This document shows, one piece after another, positions 1-8,023 of a DNA stretch of 64,000 nucleotides (within the stretch, counting starts at the first letter, position 1; the number at the start of each line of letters is the position of its first letter). The stretch is from assembly GCF_024700885.2 (NCBI RefSeq), contig NZ_CP117016.1. One strand, 5' to 3'. The position numbers and the translations under genes were made by a program. The DNA comes from Escherichia coli. Its GTDB lineage: Bacteria > Pseudomonadota > Gammaproteobacteria > Enterobacterales > Enterobacteriaceae. The notes under the pieces were generated by a model. It did no database searches. It was not told where the DNA came from and was given only the letters and a program-made list of their open reading frames with translations.

Positions 1-152
1 TTGTCCTGGCAGCAGCTGAAAAACGCCATCAGCAATAAAGAAGACGGCCAGATCGTCAGTTAATGCGGAAGTTGCCAGTAAAGCATCTAAACCTTCCCGA
101 CCAGCAGCTGTACCATGAGGTGCAGTAGAAAAAACAAACGCAATTCGTTTCA

Positions 153-153
<1 letters not shown>
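1..153 (-). CDS. tusC: Sulfurtransferase complex subunit TusC, N-terminal part (gene runs off the 5' window edge)
   Basis: Reverse complement of 1-153 translates [51 protein letters not shown], which I recognise as TusC. Its ATG (151-153, minus) overlaps the tusD stop by 1 nt. Not in the ORF track because the frame is truncated by the window edge. Confidence 0.85.
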
Positions 154-1261
<1,108 letters not shown>

Positions 1262-1387
1262 GAAAAAAAACACTCCTTTTCAGGAGCCTGTCGTTAACTT
1301 TTCAGGGCAGGCTCATTAATGATGCGGGTAACTAAATTAATACAGCGGAGGTTCCGCTTTCCAGCACTAATTATATCCGGCCTGTAA

Positions 1388-1419
1388 TAAAAAAACCGCC
1401 GCCTGGTCAGGCGGCGGTT
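1388..1419 (-). terminator. Rho-independent terminator downstream of fkpA
   Basis: Inverted repeat aaccgccgcc / ggcggcggtt; on the minus strand the hairpin is followed by a T-run. Lies just 3' of the fkpA stop. Confidence 0.7.
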
Positions 1420-1427
1420 CTTAATGC

Positions 1428-2240
1428 TTATTTTTTAGCAGAATCTGCGGCTTTCGCATCAGCTTCCGGCTTTGCATCAGCCTTCGGCGCTGGTTTCACA
1501 TCCAGCAGCTCTACGTCAAACACCAGGGTAGAATTCGGTGGGATCCCCGGAACACCCGCTTTGCCGTAAGCCAGTTCTGGTGGAATAACCAGTTTGATCT
1601 TACCGCCTTTCTTGATGTTCTTCAGACCTTCTGTCCAACCCGGAATAACACCGTCCAGACGGAAAGAGAGCGGTTCACCACGGGTGTAAGAGTTGTCGAA
1701 CTCTTTACCGTCGATCAGCGTACCTTTGTAGTTCACGACAACAGTATCGCTGTCTTTCGGTGCTTCGCCTTTACCGGCTTCGACTACCTGATAAACCAGA
1801 CCAGTTGAAGAGGTTTTCACACCTTTCTCTTTGGCAAATTTCTCGCGGTACTCTTTACCTTTCACTTCGTTATCTGCCGCGTCTTTTTCCATCTTCGCCT
1901 GAGCAGAAGACTTCACGCGAGCTTCGAATGCTTGCAGTGTCTGTTCGATCTCTTGGTCGGAGAGTTTGCTCTTATCAGCAAATGCATCCTGAACACCAGC
2001 GATCAGCTGATCTTTATCCAGTTTGATGCCCAGTTTTTCTTGTTCTTTAAGAGAATTTTCCATGTAACGACCCAGCGAAGCACCCAGTGCATAAGCTGAT
2101 TTCTGATCGTCATTTTTGAACGCTGCTTTGCTGTCAGCAGTTGTAGCAGGTTTTGCAGCTTCAGCAGCAAAAGTGATCGGTGCATGCAGGGCAACGGCCA
2201 TTGTGGTCGCCAGCAGCGTTACTTTAAACAGTGATTTCAT
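1428..2240 (-). CDS. fkpA: FKBP-type peptidyl-prolyl cis-trans isomerase FkpA (periplasmic), 270 aa
   Basis: Translation has a signal-peptide-like N-terminus (MKSLFKVTLLATTMAVALHAPITFA) and an FKBP domain (VVVNYKGTLIDGKEFDNSY...LVFDVELLDV); matches remembered FkpA. Confidence 0.95.
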   Translation of the reverse strand: MKSLFKVTLLATTMAVALHAPITFAAEAAKPATTADSKAAFKNDDQKSAYALGASLGRYMENSLKEQEKLGIKLDKDQLIAGVQDAFADKSKLSDQEIEQTLQAFEARVKSSAQAKMEKDAADNEVKGKEYREKFAKEKGVKTSSTGLVYQVVEAGKGEAPKDSDTVVVNYKGTLIDGKEFDNSYTRGEPLSFRLDGVIPGWTEGLKNIKKGGKIKLVIPPELAYGKAGVPGIPPNSTLVFDVELLDVKPAPKADAKPEADAKAADSAKK

Positions 2241-2460
2241 CCATATCTCCAGGATCGGGGCATCTCACCCCAGGGTTAACTATTATCAGAAGGGTACTAT
2301 AAAGCGTTGTCGAACAAATCTACATACAGACACGCCCTATTATCATCTATTTTCAGACTCTTTTTGTTTAAATTAGTTTCGATGACCGCGAAATGAGTGC
2401 TGTCTCGGGCAGCAAAGTTAAGTAGAATCCGCGGCGACCATTCGACAAAAGAGGTGAATC

Positions 2461-2679
2461 ATGCAGGATTTATCATTTGAAGCACGCCTGGCAGAGCTGG
2501 AGAGCCGACTGGCTTTTCAGGAAATCACCATTGAAGAACTGAACGTCACGGTGACCGCTCATGAAATGGAGATGGCGAAACTGCGCGATCATCTGCGTCT
2601 GCTGACCGAGAAGCTAAAAGCCAGCCAGCCGTCGAACATCGCGTCGCAGGCTGAAGAAACGCCACCGCCACATTATTGA
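2461..2679 (+). CDS. slyX: SlyX, small coiled-coil protein, 72 aa
   Basis: Translation [28 protein letters not shown]... matches remembered SlyX; divergent from fkpA. Confidence 0.9.
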
Positions 2680-2684
2680 GGCGT

Positions 2685-2712
2685 AAAAAAAGCGGGGATT
2701 CCCCGCTTTTTT
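2685..2712. terminator. Bidirectional rho-independent terminator shared by convergent slyX and slyD
   Basis: aaaaaaagcggggattccccgcttttttg: a perfect hairpin flanked by an A-run on one side and a T-run on the other. Confidence 0.8.
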
Positions 2713-2727
2713 GTCACTTTTTCGGTA

Positions 2728-3318
2728 TTAGTGGCAACCGCAACCGCCGTTACCTTTACCGCCGCAGCAGCCTTCGCCACCGTGTTCATGACCGTGATCG
2801 TGGCCATGACCACCGCAGCAACCGTCGTGGTCGTGATCGTGGTGATGATCGTGCGCACCGTGAACGTGGCCATGAGCCAGTTCTTCTTCAGTCGCTTCGC
2901 GAATCGCCACAACTTCAACGTTGAATTTCAGGTTCTGACCGGCCAGCATGTGGTTACCATCAACCACGACGTGATCGTCTTCAACCGCAGTGATTTCAAC
3001 CGGTACCGGACCCTGGTCAGTTTCAGCCAGGAAACGCATACCTACCTGCAGTTCATCAACGCCCATAAATACGTCTTTAGGAACGCGTTGCACCAGGTTT
3101 TCGTCGTACTGACCGTAAGCGTCGTTCGCGCCAACAGCGACATCAAATTTGTCGCCAACTTCGTGACCTTCCAGCGCCGTTTCCAGGCCAGAGATCAGGG
3201 AACCGTGACCATGCAGGTAGTCCAGCGGCGCACTCACCGGAGACTCATCAACCAACACACCGTCTTCTGTACGTACCTGATAGGCCAGGCTGACCACCAG
3301 GTCTTTTGCTACTTTCAT
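2728..3318 (-). CDS. slyD: FKBP-type PPIase / metallochaperone SlyD, 196 aa, with His/Cys-rich C-terminal tail
   Basis: Translation MKVAKDLVVSLAYQVRTEDGVLVDESP... ending HGHVHGAHDHHHDHDHDGCCGGHGHDHGHEHGGEGCCGGKGNGGCGCH; matches remembered SlyD. Confidence 0.95.
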   Translation of the reverse strand: MKVAKDLVVSLAYQVRTEDGVLVDESPVSAPLDYLHGHGSLISGLETALEGHEVGDKFDVAVGANDAYGQYDENLVQRVPKDVFMGVDELQVGMRFLAETDQGPVPVEITAVEDDHVVVDGNHMLAGQNLKFNVEVVAIREATEEELAHGHVHGAHDHHHDHDHDGCCGGHGHDHGHEHGGEGCCGGKGNGGCGCH

Positions 3319-3412
3319 GATATCTCCTGAGCATGGGAAGAATAGTGGCGCAGATTGTAGCGGAATTCTGCAGCCGTGTACTCACTAGCTTAAAAAAACT
3401 CGGCGCATATCG

Positions 3413-3613
3413 CTAGTCCGGATGAAAAATCCCGATCACTTGCTCATCTTTGCGAACGTGATCGCGGGCTTCTTTGTCCGCTTCTCGCATCTGATGTCCG
3501 CACTTAACACATTCAACAATATCAATATTATTTTCGCGCCACATCGCCATTGAATCCTGCGCCTGACAGGCCGGGCATTTTGCCCCCGCAATAAAACGTT
3601 TTCGGATTGCCAT
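3413..3613 (-). CDS. yheV: YheV, small zinc-ribbon-like protein, 66 aa
   Basis: Translation contains two CxxC pairs (CPAC ... CVKC); sits immediately downstream of kefB on the same strand. Confidence 0.8.
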   Translation of the reverse strand: MAIRKRFIAGAKCPACQAQDSMAMWRENNIDIVECVKCGHQMREADKEARDHVRKDEQVIGIFHPD

Positions 3614-3622
3614 CTTTACCCT

Positions 3623-5428
3623 CTACTCAAATTCATCCCAGCCGTCCAGCTGGCGTCGTTCTTGTTGCATTTCACGCTGGAAAATCTCTTCCAGTTCGCG
3701 TCGGGCTTCCCTGGCGCGAGAAATTTGTACGGTGTCGGCATGCATTGGGATGAGCTCCCGCAACATCCGCATATCCAGGCGGCGAAAATGCAGTTGCGCC
3801 CGCTGCGCCTGATGTGGATGCATGCCTAGCGTGACCAGCGTCTTGCGCCCCAGCTCTAACGCACTGGAGAATGTCTCACGAGAAAACTGCGTCACCCCTG
3901 CCTGTAATAACTCATGCGCCTCCACACGTCCGCGCGCTCGCGCAAGAATATGTAAATGCGGAAAGTGCTGCTGGCATATTTCCACCAGTTTCATGGTGTC
4001 TTCCGGCTCATTACAGGTAATGACGATAGACTCAGCGGCCTCTGCACCCGCAGAACGTAAAAGATCTACCTGCGTGGCGTCGCCGTAATAAACTTTGTAG
4101 CCATATTTGCGCATCAGGTTAACGGCACTGATATCCCGCTCCAGCACAGTAATGCGCATTTTATTTGCCATCAGCAAACGACCAATCACCTGACCAAAAC
4201 GTCCAAAGCCCACGACAATGACCTGCGGTTTATCATCGTTGACCCACGGTTTTTCATCCTCTTCTTCCGGTCCGTTAAACTGGCGGGATAGCCATTTATC
4301 TACCAGCTTCATCAGCAGCGGCGTGGTCATCATGGAAAGCGTCACCGTCACCAGCAACAGCGCCATCTGGTCACCCTGGAATAAGCGTTGTGAAGAAGCG
4401 GTAGAAAAGAGCACAAAGGCAAACTCACCGCCCTGACTCAACACGCCAGCAAACTGCATCCGCTCTGAGCTACGCACGCCATACAGTCGCGCCAGCAGAT
4501 ACAGCACGAGAATTTTCACCGCCACCAGCACAACCACAGCTATCACTACCCACAACAGATGGGTATAAAGCACCCCGAGGTTGAGCGACATGCCGACAGA
4601 GATAAAGAACAAACCGAGCAGCAACCCCTTAAACGGATCGATAGCCGTTTCCAGTTCATGGCGATATTCACTTTCCGCCAGCAGCACGCCTGCAATAAAC
4701 GTACCGAGCGCCATCGACAGCCCCAGCGCATCCATAAACAATGCGGAACCCAACACCAGCAGCAACGTCGCGGCGGTGAACACTTCCCGCACGCCAGAAG
4801 CTGCAATAAAGCGGAATACCGGACGCAGTAAATAGCGCCCGCCAATCAGCATGCCGACAAACGCCAGCACCTTCATGCCGATCTTCATCCAGTCGAAATG
4901 TTCGTCTGCCGAACCCGCCAACAACGGCACTAACGCCAGTGCCGGGATCACTGCCAGATCCTGAAACAGCAGAACCGAAAACCCGAGCTGCCCGGATTCG
5001 CTGCGATTCATCCCTTTATCACGCATCAGTTGCAACGCCATTGCGGTTGAGGACATCGCAAGGCCAATACCACCGACCACCGCCGCCTGCCAGGCGAAAT
5101 CCGTCAGCATCAATAATCCCGCCAGCAACGCCGCGCTTAACAGCACCTGTGCCGCACCTACGCCAAAAATCGAACGCCGCAATTGCCAAAGCTTGGAGGG
5201 ATTCAACTCCAGGCCGATGATAAACATCAGGAACACCACGCCGAGTTCCGAAAAGTGGAGGATCTCATCGACGTCGCTAATAAAACCCAGCCCCCACGGG
5301 CCAATTGCAATCCCTGCCAGCAAATATCCCAACACAGCGCCAATACCCAGCCGCGATGCCAGCGGCACCGCAGCCACCGCCGCGAAGAGAAACAACACTC
5401 CTGCGAGTAAAAAATCGGAACCTTCCAT
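3623..5428 (-). CDS. kefB: Glutathione-regulated K+/H+ efflux antiporter KefB, 601 aa
   Basis: Multi-TM N-terminal domain plus C-terminal KTN/Rossmann segment ([17 protein letters not shown]); matches remembered KefB. Confidence 0.95.
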
Positions 5429-5982
5429 CAGCGGCCTCCTGGAGACAGCGGATTTGCCAGCCAGTCACCGTAGGCTCTGGCGTGACTCGCCAGCTCCTGT
5501 GCGCTTTGCCGTCTCGCCCAGTAAATAATGATGGGACTCAACCAATGCATCCGGCACATGCCCGCCGCTAGTTCAAAGGGGCGCAGAACATCGCTCATCG
5601 GGTAGCGATTCAAGGCGTCATAACGGTAAGCACTTTCCGGCTCGCCGGTGGTAATCACGCTACGCCAGTACTTTCCCGCCAGTTGGTTTCCTCCCGGCCC
5701 GCTGGCAAAACCACGGCTTAATACCCGGTCCAGCCACTCTTTCAGTAGCGCCGGGCAGCTATAGGTATAAAGAGGATGCTGAAAGACAATCACCTCGTGC
5801 TCGCGCAGTAATGCCTGCTCACGGGGGATATCAATAAAAAAATCGGGATAGTGCGCGTAAAGGTCGTGCACGGTAACATTGCTGAGCTGCGTGGCCGGTT
5901 TAAGCAGTACCCGGTTTGCCACCGAGTCCTGAGATTCCGGATGGGCATACAGCAGCAAAACTTTCGCTGGCTGAGACATCAT
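5428..5982 (-). CDS. kefG: KefG, ancillary quinone-oxidoreductase-like subunit of the KefB system, 184 aa
   Basis: Translation [20 protein letters not shown]...; stop overlaps the kefB start by 1 nt (translational coupling). Confidence 0.92.
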
Positions 5983-6109
5983 CCCCCTCCCGGTATGGTT
6001 TTTGTGTATAGTCGCTGTTTTGGGCTACCATTGCGCCCGGTGCGGCAGCTCGCCCATACATTACATTATCATAATGATAAGTTAACATAGTCTGAACATA
6101 CGGCACCTT

Positions 6110-8023
6110 ATGATTGTTTTCTCCTCGTTACAAATTCGTCGCGGCGTGCGCGTCCTGCTGGATAATGCCACCGCCACCATCAACCCCGGGCAGAAAGTCG
6201 GCCTGGTGGGTAAAAACGGCTGTGGTAAATCTACCCTGCTGGCATTGCTGAAAAATGAACTCAGCGCCGACGGCGGCAGCTACACCTTTCCGGGAAGCTG
6301 GCAACTGGCGTGGGTGAATCAGGAAACGCCGGCGTTACCGCAAGCAGCGCTGGAATATGTCATTGACGGCGACCGTGAATATCGCCAACTGGAAGCGCAG
6401 CTACGCGACGCCAACGAACGTAACGACGGGCACGCCATTGCGACCATTCATGGCAAGCTGGATGCTATTGACGCATGGAGTATTCGCTCCCGCGCCGCAA
6501 GTCTGTTGCACGGCCTCGGTTTCAGCAATGAACAACTCGAGCGTCCGGTAAGTGATTTCTCCGGTGGCTGGCGTATGCGTCTTAACCTTGCCCAGGCGCT
6601 GATTTGCCGTTCAGACTTGCTGCTGCTCGACGAACCGACTAACCACCTCGATCTCGATGCCGTTATCTGGCTGGAAAAATGGCTGAAGAGCTATCAGGGC
6701 ACGCTGATCCTGATCTCTCACGACCGCGATTTCCTCGATCCGATCGTCGATAAAATTATTCATATCGAACAACAAAGCATGTTCGAGTACACCGGCAACT
6801 ACAGTTCGTTTGAAGTACAGCGCGCCACCCGTCTGGCGCAGCAACAAGCGATGTACGAAAGCCAGCAGGAACGCGTGGCGCATCTGCAAAGTTATATCGA
6901 CCGTTTCCGTGCCAAAGCCACCAAAGCGAAGCAGGCCCAGAGCCGTATTAAGATGCTGGAGCGTATGGAGCTGATTGCCCCCGCGCACGTCGACAACCCG
7001 TTTCGTTTTAGCTTCCGCGCGCCGGAAAGCCTGCCTAATCCGTTATTAAAGATGGAAAAAGTCAGCGCAGGCTATGGTGATCGCATTATTCTCGACTCGA
7101 TTAAACTGAATCTGGTGCCCGGCTCGCGCATTGGTCTGTTAGGCCGCAACGGCGCGGGTAAATCGACATTAATCAAACTGTTAGCTGGCGAACTTGCGCC
7201 AGTCAGCGGTGAAATTGGTCTGGCGAAAGGGATCAAGCTCGGCTACTTCGCCCAGCATCAACTGGAATACCTGCGCGCCGACGAATCGCCTATTCAACAT
7301 CTGGCACGTTTAGCGCCGCAGGAACTGGAACAAAAACTGCGTGACTACCTCGGCGGCTTTGGTTTCCAGGGCGATAAAGTGACGGAAGAAACGCGCCGCT
7401 TTTCCGGTGGGGAAAAAGCCCGCCTGGTGCTGGCATTAATCGTCTGGCAGCGTCCGAATCTGCTGCTGCTCGACGAACCGACCAACCACCTTGACCTCGA
7501 CATGCGTCAGGCACTCACCGAAGCATTAATCGAGTTCGAAGGCGCGCTGGTTGTCGTCTCGCACGACCGTCATTTGCTGCGTTCCACCACTGACGATCTC
7601 TACCTGGTTCACGATCGTAAAGTCGAACCGTTCGACGGCGATCTGGAAGATTATCAACAGTGGTTGAGCGACGTACAAAAGCAGGAAAACCAGACCGACG
7701 AAGCGCCAAAAGAGAACGCAAACAGCGCCCAGGCACGTAAAGATCAGAAGCGTCGGGAAGCGGAGCTGCGTGCGCAAACCCAACCGCTGCGTAAAGAGAT
7801 CGCCCGTCTGGAAAAAGAGATGGAAAAGCTGAACGCACAGCTGGCGCAGGCGGAAGAGAAACTCGGCGACAGCGAACTGTACGATCAAAGCCGTAAAGCA
7901 GAACTGACCGCCTGCCTGCAACAGCAAGCCAGCGCCAAATCCGGCCTGGAAGAGTGCGAAATGGCGTGGCTGGAAGCCCAGGAGCAGCTTGAGCAGATGC
8001 TGCTGGAAGGCCAAAGCAACTGA
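6110..8023 (+). CDS. yheS: ABC-F family ATPase YheS (two ABC cassettes, no transmembrane domain), 637 aa
   Basis: Two Walker A motifs (GKNGCGKST, GRNGAGKST) and two signature/Walker B regions (LSGGWRMR...LLLLDEPTNHLD twice), then a charged coiled-coil C-terminal tail. Confidence 0.93.
   Translation: MIVFSSLQIRRGVRVLLDNATATINPGQKVGLVGKNGCGKSTLLALLKNELSADGGSYTFPGSWQLAWVNQETPALPQAALEYVIDGDREYRQLEAQLRDANERNDGHAIATIHGKLDAIDAWSIRSRAASLLHGLGFSNEQLERPVSDFSGGWRMRLNLAQALICRSDLLLLDEPTNHLDLDAVIWLEKWLKSYQGTLILISHDRDFLDPIVDKIIHIEQQSMFEYTGNYSSFEVQRATRLAQQQAMYESQQERVAHLQSYIDRFRAKATKAKQAQSRIKMLERMELIAPAHVDNPFRFSFRAPESLPNPLLKMEKVSAGYGDRIILDSIKLNLVPGSRIGLLGRNGAGKSTLIKLLAGELAPVSGEIGLAKGIKLGYFAQHQLEYLRADESPIQHLARLAPQELEQKLRDYLGGFGFQGDKVTEETRRFSGGEKARLVLALIVWQRPNLLLLDEPTNHLDLDMRQALTEALIEFEGALVVVSHDRHLLRSTTDDLYLVHDRKVEPFDGDLEDYQQWLSDVQKQENQTDEAPKENANSAQARKDQKRREAELRAQTQPLRKEIARLEKEMEKLNAQLAQAEEKLGDSELYDQSRKAELTACLQQQASAKSGLEECEMAWLEAQEQLEQMLLEGQSN

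Follow-up and report, generated by a model that had tools for sequence, protein, structure and literature searches.

YheV, a predicted zinc-ribbon protein encoded behind kefGB in Escherichia coli: gene neighbourhoods and candidate partners

The small gene yheV of E. coli follows directly behind the kefGB genes for a glutathione-gated K+ efflux system, which raises the question of whether its product takes part in K+ efflux or has a different function and only shares the transcript. A first-pass annotation of the window (the whole analysed stretch of 64,000 nucleotides) had left both possibilities standing, proposing either an accessory factor for K+ efflux or an unrelated co-transcribed regulator. 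Full-text literature searches yielded no functional study of YheV, DUF2387, TIGR02443, PF09526 or COG3529, and the gene appeared there in list-type mentions, namely in the ArcA regulon (PMC3798270), among MazF-processed transcripts, in a curli screen and in a proteome table. The gene, the putative zinc-ribbon nature of its product and its operon membership are already known from RefSeq, NCBIfam, Pfam and the regulon papers. Beyond the existing annotation, we add only a lineage-dependent coupling of yheV to prlC and yheS, as read from gene neighbourhoods, and a possible partnership of YheV with PrlC or YheS.

The yheV gene and its position behind kefGB

The features of the region and of the YheV protein are the following (positions in the window; residues of YheV in the last two lines).

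5428–5982, minus strand: kefG, ancillary flavodoxin-like subunit and first cistron (NCBIfam NF003430, 354 bits; ORF coordinates)
3623–5428, minus strand: kefB, glutathione-gated K+/H+ antiporter (NCBIfam NF002973, 1189 bits; Pfam Na_H_Exchanger and TrkA_N; RefSeq)
3614–3625, minus strand: kefB-yheV junction, consisting of the kefB TAG at 3625–3623 and the 9-nt spacer agggtaaag (sequence reading)
3413–3613, minus strand: yheV coding sequence with ATG start, 66 codons and TAG stop (ORF and translation, TIGR02443 and DUF2387 matches)
3319–3412, minus strand: yheV-slyD spacer of 94 nt (sequence reading)
2728–3318, minus strand: slyD, FKBP-type peptidyl-prolyl isomerase and metallochaperone with a His/Cys-rich tail (NCBIfam NF008008, 427 bits)
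YheV residues 1–43: predicted Cys4 zinc-ribbon core with the RFIAGAxCPxC signature at 6–16 and the second knuckle CVKC at 35–38
YheV residues 44–66: tail with a polar linker of lower model confidence, followed by the C-terminal motif VIGIFHPD

The yheV product consists of 66 amino acids (MAIRKRFIAGAKCPACQAQDSMAMWRENNIDIVECVKCGHQMREADKEARDHVRKDEQVIGIFHPD) and carries the motifs CPAC at residues 13–16 and CVKC at residues 35–38. The first-pass annotation had described this product correctly in every element, had given the exact 9-bp distance to kefB on the same strand and had chosen the right gene name, as judged from the RefSeq annotation and from the NCBIfam equivalog profile TIGR02443, which matched YheV with 107.4 bits (cutoff 49.45, E 2.3e-31). 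The Pfam profile DUF2387 (PF09526) matched with 69.5 bits (cutoff 25.9). Bases 2400–6100 of the window were found in 5,425 of 5,426 complete E. coli genomes, several of them at 100% identity, and the RefSeq annotation under this match lists slyX, slyD, yheV, kefB and kefG. The dN/dS values of yheV against ten orthologues from Enterobacteriaceae were 0.015 to 0.11, and the protein has already been detected by mass spectrometry. We regard it as near-certain that yheV is a genuine, translated and strongly constrained gene of the YheV family. An sRNA or a 3'UTR element in place of the gene is excluded because of the conservation at the protein level and the dN/dS values. In an Rfam search of the surrounding stretch, no RNA family was found within or beside yheV, and the two matches around the gene, at 2685–2748 and 4313–4356, were both below threshold.

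More than 6,600 sequence clusters (at 90% identity) matched the family profile, and an exhaustive HMMER pass through 1.84 billion cluster representatives yielded 296 YheV-like representatives at E ≤1e-3. The best 150 of these 296 were all short, stand-alone proteins of 44 to 130 amino acids, the longest among them being frameshift or fusion artefacts, and E. coli YheV shares this stand-alone architecture with no fused domains. We aligned 102 diverse homologues with 27–59% identity to the E. coli protein and found F7, A9, C13, C16, C35 and C38 to be invariant, while R6, I8, G10, A11, P14 and D20 were conserved in at least 90% of the sequences; all of these residues are present in the YheV of the window. 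The family signature reads (K/R)RFIAGAxCPxC ... ECVxCG(Y/H/F), after which come a polar linker that varies between members and, at the C-terminus, a short hydrophobic segment, which in the E. coli clade has the sequence VIGIFxP(E/D). By every sequence criterion tested, YheV belongs to TIGR02443/DUF2387.

The ATG codon of yheV is located at 3613–3611, exactly 9 nt past the stop codon of kefB, and a Shine-Dalgarno-like sequence, AGAGGG, starts inside this stop codon and ends 5 nt ahead of the ATG, so that kefB and yheV are closely packed for translation; kefG and kefB overlap by ATGA. Scanning the minus strand of the kefB-yheV junction for sites revealed neither terminator-like nor promoter-like elements, and the distance from kefB to yheV did not exceed 26 nt, overlaps of 17 nt included, in 46 of the 55 Enterobacterales loci with a kefB match (see below). 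An ArcA regulon paper names kefGB-yheV as a single ArcA-repressed operon (PMC3798270), and an in-vitro binding peak of the sigma-28 holoenzyme has been reported within kefB (PMC5493296). The three genes thus lie on one strand with a short gap and with neither a terminator nor an obligatory promoter in between. Because of the short gap, the lack of a terminator and the operon named in the literature, the co-transcription of yheV with kefGB that the first-pass annotation had proposed is plausible and, as far as anatomy and annotation indicate, probable. Given the 9-nt packing, the putative ribosome-binding site that covers the stop codon of kefB and the terminator-free junction, expression of yheV as the final kefGB-yheV cistron is most likely.

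On the downstream side, a run of seven U residues (3398–3392) follows a weak hairpin in the yheV-slyD spacer, and a terminator scan called no terminator there. The hairpin has a predicted stability of −11.2 kcal/mol (z 0.55) and is no more stable than shuffled sequences; therefore, it is uncertain whether transcription ends behind yheV, and transcripts may continue into slyD. A TACAAT hexamer at 3359–3354 on the minus strand precedes slyD and was read by eye, being uncalled by the scanner. The spacer is exactly 94 nt long in nearly all sampled loci of Enterobacteriaceae (L001–L025) and measures 87 to 200 nt in other Enterobacterales. Its fixed length points to constraint on a promoter or leader of slyD. 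The slyD gene adjoins yheV downstream in Enterobacterales, Photobacterium and Aeromonas.

Some further observations concern slyD and its surroundings. The already known metal-binding tail of SlyD, rich in His, Cys and Gly, has the sequence HGHVHGAHDHHHDHDHDGCCGGHGHDHGHEHGGEGCCGGKGNGGCGCH. On the opposite strand, an ORF of 199 amino acids (2731–3330, plus strand) spans the whole slyD gene; it almost certainly arises mechanically, as an artefact, from repetitive GC-rich codons. Between the convergent genes slyX and slyD, a terminator-like hairpin at 2686–2712 shows 12 paired positions flanked by A-runs and T-runs, and it probably acts in both directions. This hairpin is overlapped by the sub-threshold Rfam match at 2685–2748 on the minus strand, which concerns the Salmonella sRNA STnc40 and reached 28.5 bits versus a gathering score of 45.

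A predicted stand-alone zinc ribbon

To our AF2 model of YheV, calculated from the 102-sequence alignment, the program assigned a mean pLDDT of 80.5, with values of 87 to 94 over residues 1–40 and of 56 to 71 over the tail. The model contains strands at residues 22–27, 30–35 and 41–43 and a short helix at 45–52, and shows the two knuckles and the three-stranded antiparallel beta-sheet of a zinc ribbon. In a Foldseek comparison, the best structural matches were the zinc ribbons of Elf1, which ranked first, TFIIS and Rpb9, with scores at the level attainable by a domain of about 40 residues, which fix the fold class and not the function. A sequence search of solved structures found no structure related to YheV (best E 0.095). 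The zinc-ribbon reading of the first-pass annotation was therefore borne out by the four invariant cysteines, by the model with its two knuckles and three strands and by the matches to Elf1, TFIIS and Rpb9. We consider it near-certain that YheV is a stand-alone Cys4 zinc ribbon with a predicted classical fold, and we infer zinc binding from the Cys4 pattern and this predicted fold.

Neighbourhoods of yheV across lineages and candidate partners

We surveyed the gene neighbourhoods of yheV in 80 genome loci and 80 metagenome loci, together with the individual contexts of distant representatives and annotated records. The metagenome scan was seeded with a distant sub-alignment and returned only Pseudomonas-like loci, 69–97% identical to the seed, so that these loci gauge the linkage to PrlC inside the Pseudomonas-like group and not across the family. 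In the 56 loci of Enterobacterales and in Photobacterium, the order was yheS(−) / kefG kefB yheV slyD (+) / slyX(−) fkpA(+); one of the 56 is a contig of 385 nt without context, leaving 55 loci with a kefB match. The kefGB arrangement with its tight gap is kept in all of these 55 and in Photobacterium. The short contig (L031) has low coverage and is labelled Desulfobulbus alkaliphilus. It encodes a YheV of the 64-aa Erwinia/Pantoea type that shares 75% identity with the YheV of E. coli, and the contig most likely represents a contamination of the Desulfobulbus alkaliphilus assembly.

A different order was found in about 24 Alteromonadales-type loci (Colwellia, Rheinheimera, Arsukibacterium, Pseudoalteromonas, Alishewanella, Alkalimonas and Aestuariibacter), where yheS(−), yheV(+) and slyX(−) follow each other with a divergent spacer of 92–503 nt between yheS and yheV and with neither kefGB nor slyD at the locus; slyX and fkpA lie beyond yheV where detectable. 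In these 24 loci, the 6 kb upstream of yheV contained no kefB or kefG. Aeromonas caviae shows the order yheV-slyD / slyX / fkpA, and both kefGB and yheS are missing from the 6 kb upstream of yheV. The fetched flanks of the Pseudomonas-like loci and of Acinetobacter likewise contained no kefB or kefG. Among the sampled loci, adjacency to kefGB was thus seen only in Enterobacterales and in one genus of Vibrionaceae, Photobacterium. The simplest reading of these gene orders is an old synteny block of yheS, yheV, slyX and fkpA, into which kefGB and slyD may have been inserted or from which they may have been lost. As a separate observation, Photobacterium and a marine lineage carry, between slyX and fkpA, the gene for a WD40 beta-propeller protein with a length of about 330 amino acids (L084, 577–1575; L090 and L091, 6180–7163), which is not found in the E. 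coli window. We did not take matches in collections of phages and plasmids (H10, H11, H14–H22) for mobile copies of yheV, since the records turned out to be mis-filed chromosomes; they comprised "plasmids" of 4–5 Mb from E. coli, Proteus, Klebsiella and Aeromonas, as well as WGS contigs of Salmonella filed among the phages, and served only to obtain the contexts in Acinetobacter and Aeromonas.

These distributions bear directly on a role in K+ efflux. Cys4-Zn sites react with electrophiles or oxidants in some cases. A dedicated KefGB accessory or regulator could therefore work as a Cys4-Zn thiol switch sensing the electrophiles that activate Kef, or could bind the KTN domain of KefB or KefG. 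Such a role is consistent with the position of yheV on the same strand, 9 nt past kefB and with no terminator in between, with the conservation of this arrangement in the 55 Enterobacterales loci and Photobacterium, and with the kefGB-yheV operon named in the literature (PMC3798270); a functional link in that clade would indeed be expected to show such a stable and tight arrangement. Crystal structures contain coordinated zinc ions where KefC and KefF meet (PMC10224563), a weak metal link to which we gave no weight. Against a Kef role, the invariant signature is kept away from kefGB in the Alteromonadales-type loci, Aeromonas, the Pseudomonas-like loci, Acinetobacter and others, and where yheV is translationally coupled outside the kefGB clade, its partner is PrlC or YheS and not a Kef gene. 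Moreover, positions 1–8,000 of the window contain no second YheV-like ORF of at least 40 amino acids, and the kefFC operon is not known to contain a YheV-like gene. The literature describes the Kef system as KefB or KefC plus the flavodoxin-like ancillary proteins KefG or KefF, encoded upstream, lists only these as components and reports full activity with KefG or KefF alone; the review concerned never mentions YheV (PMC10224563). The accessory factor of the first-pass annotation is thus unsupported, and we consider a Kef role of YheV highly improbable. Of its other option, an unrelated co-transcribed regulator, the unrelated and co-transcribed protein fits better than a Kef accessory, a role as regulator being conjectural. 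We regard it as fairly likely, from the gene neighbourhoods, that yheV is a passenger at kefGB and not a Kef component.

In the Pseudomonas-like loci, an M3 oligopeptidase gene of the PrlC type lies directly upstream of yheV in all 71 loci with enough upstream sequence, and the stop and start codons of prlC and yheV overlap as ATGA in 72 of 79 pairs, distant lineages included. The order in Acinetobacter baumannii is rnr, M3 metallopeptidase, YheV, and in three more distant sequences (P0253, P0198 and P0204; 34–44% identical to the Pseudomonas type) YheV follows directly behind Peptidase_M3. In Pseudomonadales and Moraxellales, prlC-yheV forms a separate, strong operon. Within the Pseudomonas-like metagenome loci (L095–L174), M3 peptidases occur on both sides of the YheV homologue in 16 of 69 loci, the second paralogue being 28–42% identical and located immediately downstream, at a distance of 110–160 nt on the same strand (e.g., L107, 95–2438; L115, 4001–6375). 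The downstream gene in nine of the 69 loci codes for a DUF1835/DUF3658 protein.

The linkages to M3 peptidases argue for YheV as a partner or modulator of PrlC (M3 oligopeptidase A), for example as a small adaptor or inhibitor with its flexible C-terminal peptide in the peptidase channel, the E. coli copy being merely separated from prlC. They are opposed by the location of yheV away from prlC in E. coli and in the entire clade of Enterobacterales, Vibrionaceae and Alteromonadales and by the different C-terminal tails of the PrlC-linked and the E. coli groups. We also modelled PrlC fused to YheV via a Gly/Ser linker of 30 residues with AF2, using a paired alignment of 13 sequences. The resulting model was poor (mean pLDDT 63, with values below 50 for the C-terminus of PrlC and the tail of YheV) and gave no sign of docking, which, given this quality, counts neither for nor against an interaction. 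A partnership with PrlC by itself seems doubtful to us.

YheS, an ABC-F protein which releases SecM-arrested ribosomes according to in-vitro and structural work (PMC13249984), represents the second candidate. As its co-worker on the ribosome, YheV would be a small basic zinc ribbon that binds rRNA or the ribosome and aids or tunes the release of arrested nascent chains. The yheS gene is a conserved neighbour in the E. coli-like clade, either divergent from yheV at the above-mentioned distances in the 24 Alteromonadales-type loci or situated across kefGB in Enterobacterales and Photobacterium. In one metagenome contig (L175, 3007–5270), yheS and yheV share one strand and an ATGA overlap, the gene for a DUF1801 protein follows, and the encoded YheS is a true orthologue with 55% identity to E. 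coli YheS over 642 amino acids. The closest structural analogues of YheV, the zinc ribbons of Elf1, TFIIS and Rpb9, also belong to machines acting on nucleic acids, and the known activity of YheS on SecM-arrested ribosomes would fit such a role. However, the divergent neighbourhood of the two genes may reflect inherited synteny, the activity of YheS on the arrested ribosomes was described without mention of YheV (PMC13249984), as was the case throughout the YheS and ABCF papers, and no yheS gene lies near yheV in the Pseudomonas-like loci. We consider this partnership improbable, too.

Other contexts of yheV include an upstream aroE, a divergent Hsp70 gene and a downstream cupin gene, and no partner is universal; the tightest translationally coupled linkages outside the kefGB clade of the sampled loci are those to PrlC and, once, to YheS. 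In the reading that we prefer, YheV would be a portable small binding module whose operon partner varies by lineage, and because of this variation the Kef linkage in E. coli would more probably be one of convenience than a subunit relationship, i.e., a lineage-specific operon arrangement and not a functional partnership. A first contact surface may be provided by the ribbon, with the invariant RFIAGA strand leading into the first knuckle, and a second one by the conserved hydrophobic C-terminal peptide on its flexible linker. The true partner would most likely be found in cytosolic protein synthesis, folding or peptide turnover, since PrlC, YheS and SlyD/SlyX/FkpA recur as neighbours across orders, although the adjacency of yheS, slyX and fkpA could be inherited synteny with no functional meaning. 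As a whole, the combination of a zinc-ribbon YheV, a passenger position at Kef and a partner in protein synthesis or peptide turnover is the reading towards which we lean slightly, and any specific partner is unlikely when taken singly. A more tentative proposal, which we put forward as possible but less likely than not, is that YheV is a hitherto unrecognised small zinc-ribbon partner of the cytosolic peptide-handling machinery that binds PrlC, YheS or both, and that its position behind kefGB is an accident of the insertion of kefGB between yheS and yheV.

The finding itself is of little weight because the gene, its annotation and the operon are already public. The neighbourhood survey turns the question of YheV function from K+ efflux towards oligopeptidase A and YheS, and it concerns a protein that is strongly constrained across many Gammaproteobacteria. 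If the partnership with PrlC or YheS were true, it would provide a function for another y-gene of E. coli and a new component of nascent-chain or peptide quality control, linking the release of arrested chains or the turnover of signal peptides to a dedicated adaptor.

Comparison with known systems

KefF and KefG resemble YheV in being small soluble proteins encoded in an operon with a Kef antiporter. They are flavodoxin-like NAD(P)H quinone oxidoreductases of about 20 kDa whose genes lie upstream of the antiporter gene and overlap with it, whereas YheV is a predicted zinc ribbon of 7.6 kDa encoded downstream, with kef adjacency limited to two orders in our sample. In the Pfam searches, YheV matched zinc-ribbon families only and Flavodoxin_2 matched KefG, and the locus flanks showed that YheV does not stay next to an antiporter gene wherever it occurs, as would be expected of a Kef subunit. 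We rejected YheV as a subunit of the KefF/KefG class, from which it departs in fold, in gene position and in distribution.

Elf1, domain III of TFIIS and Rpb9, which are RNA polymerase factors of eukaryotes and archaea, are like YheV in fold only. Their sequence relationship to YheV is not significant (phmmer E 0.53), they belong to another domain of life and they carry other flanking segments, and the likeness does not imply that YheV binds RNA polymerase. Closer in size and in the CxxC...CxxC layout are the small bacterial Cys4 zinc-ribbon proteins of the families Lar_restr_allev (PF14354) and ECs_2282 (NF047912) and ZifS (TTHA0897, PDB 8yoz). The profile matches of YheV to the two families were weak (E 3e-4 to 9e-4) and under the curated cutoffs, the Foldseek comparison of its model with ZifS gave a TM score of 0.47, and all of these proteins are devoid of the RFIAGA signature and the C-terminal motif of YheV. 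Compared with the YheV family itself (TIGR02443/DUF2387), the protein of the window shows no difference and shares the same signature, the stand-alone architecture of 60–100 amino acids and the RefSeq annotation.
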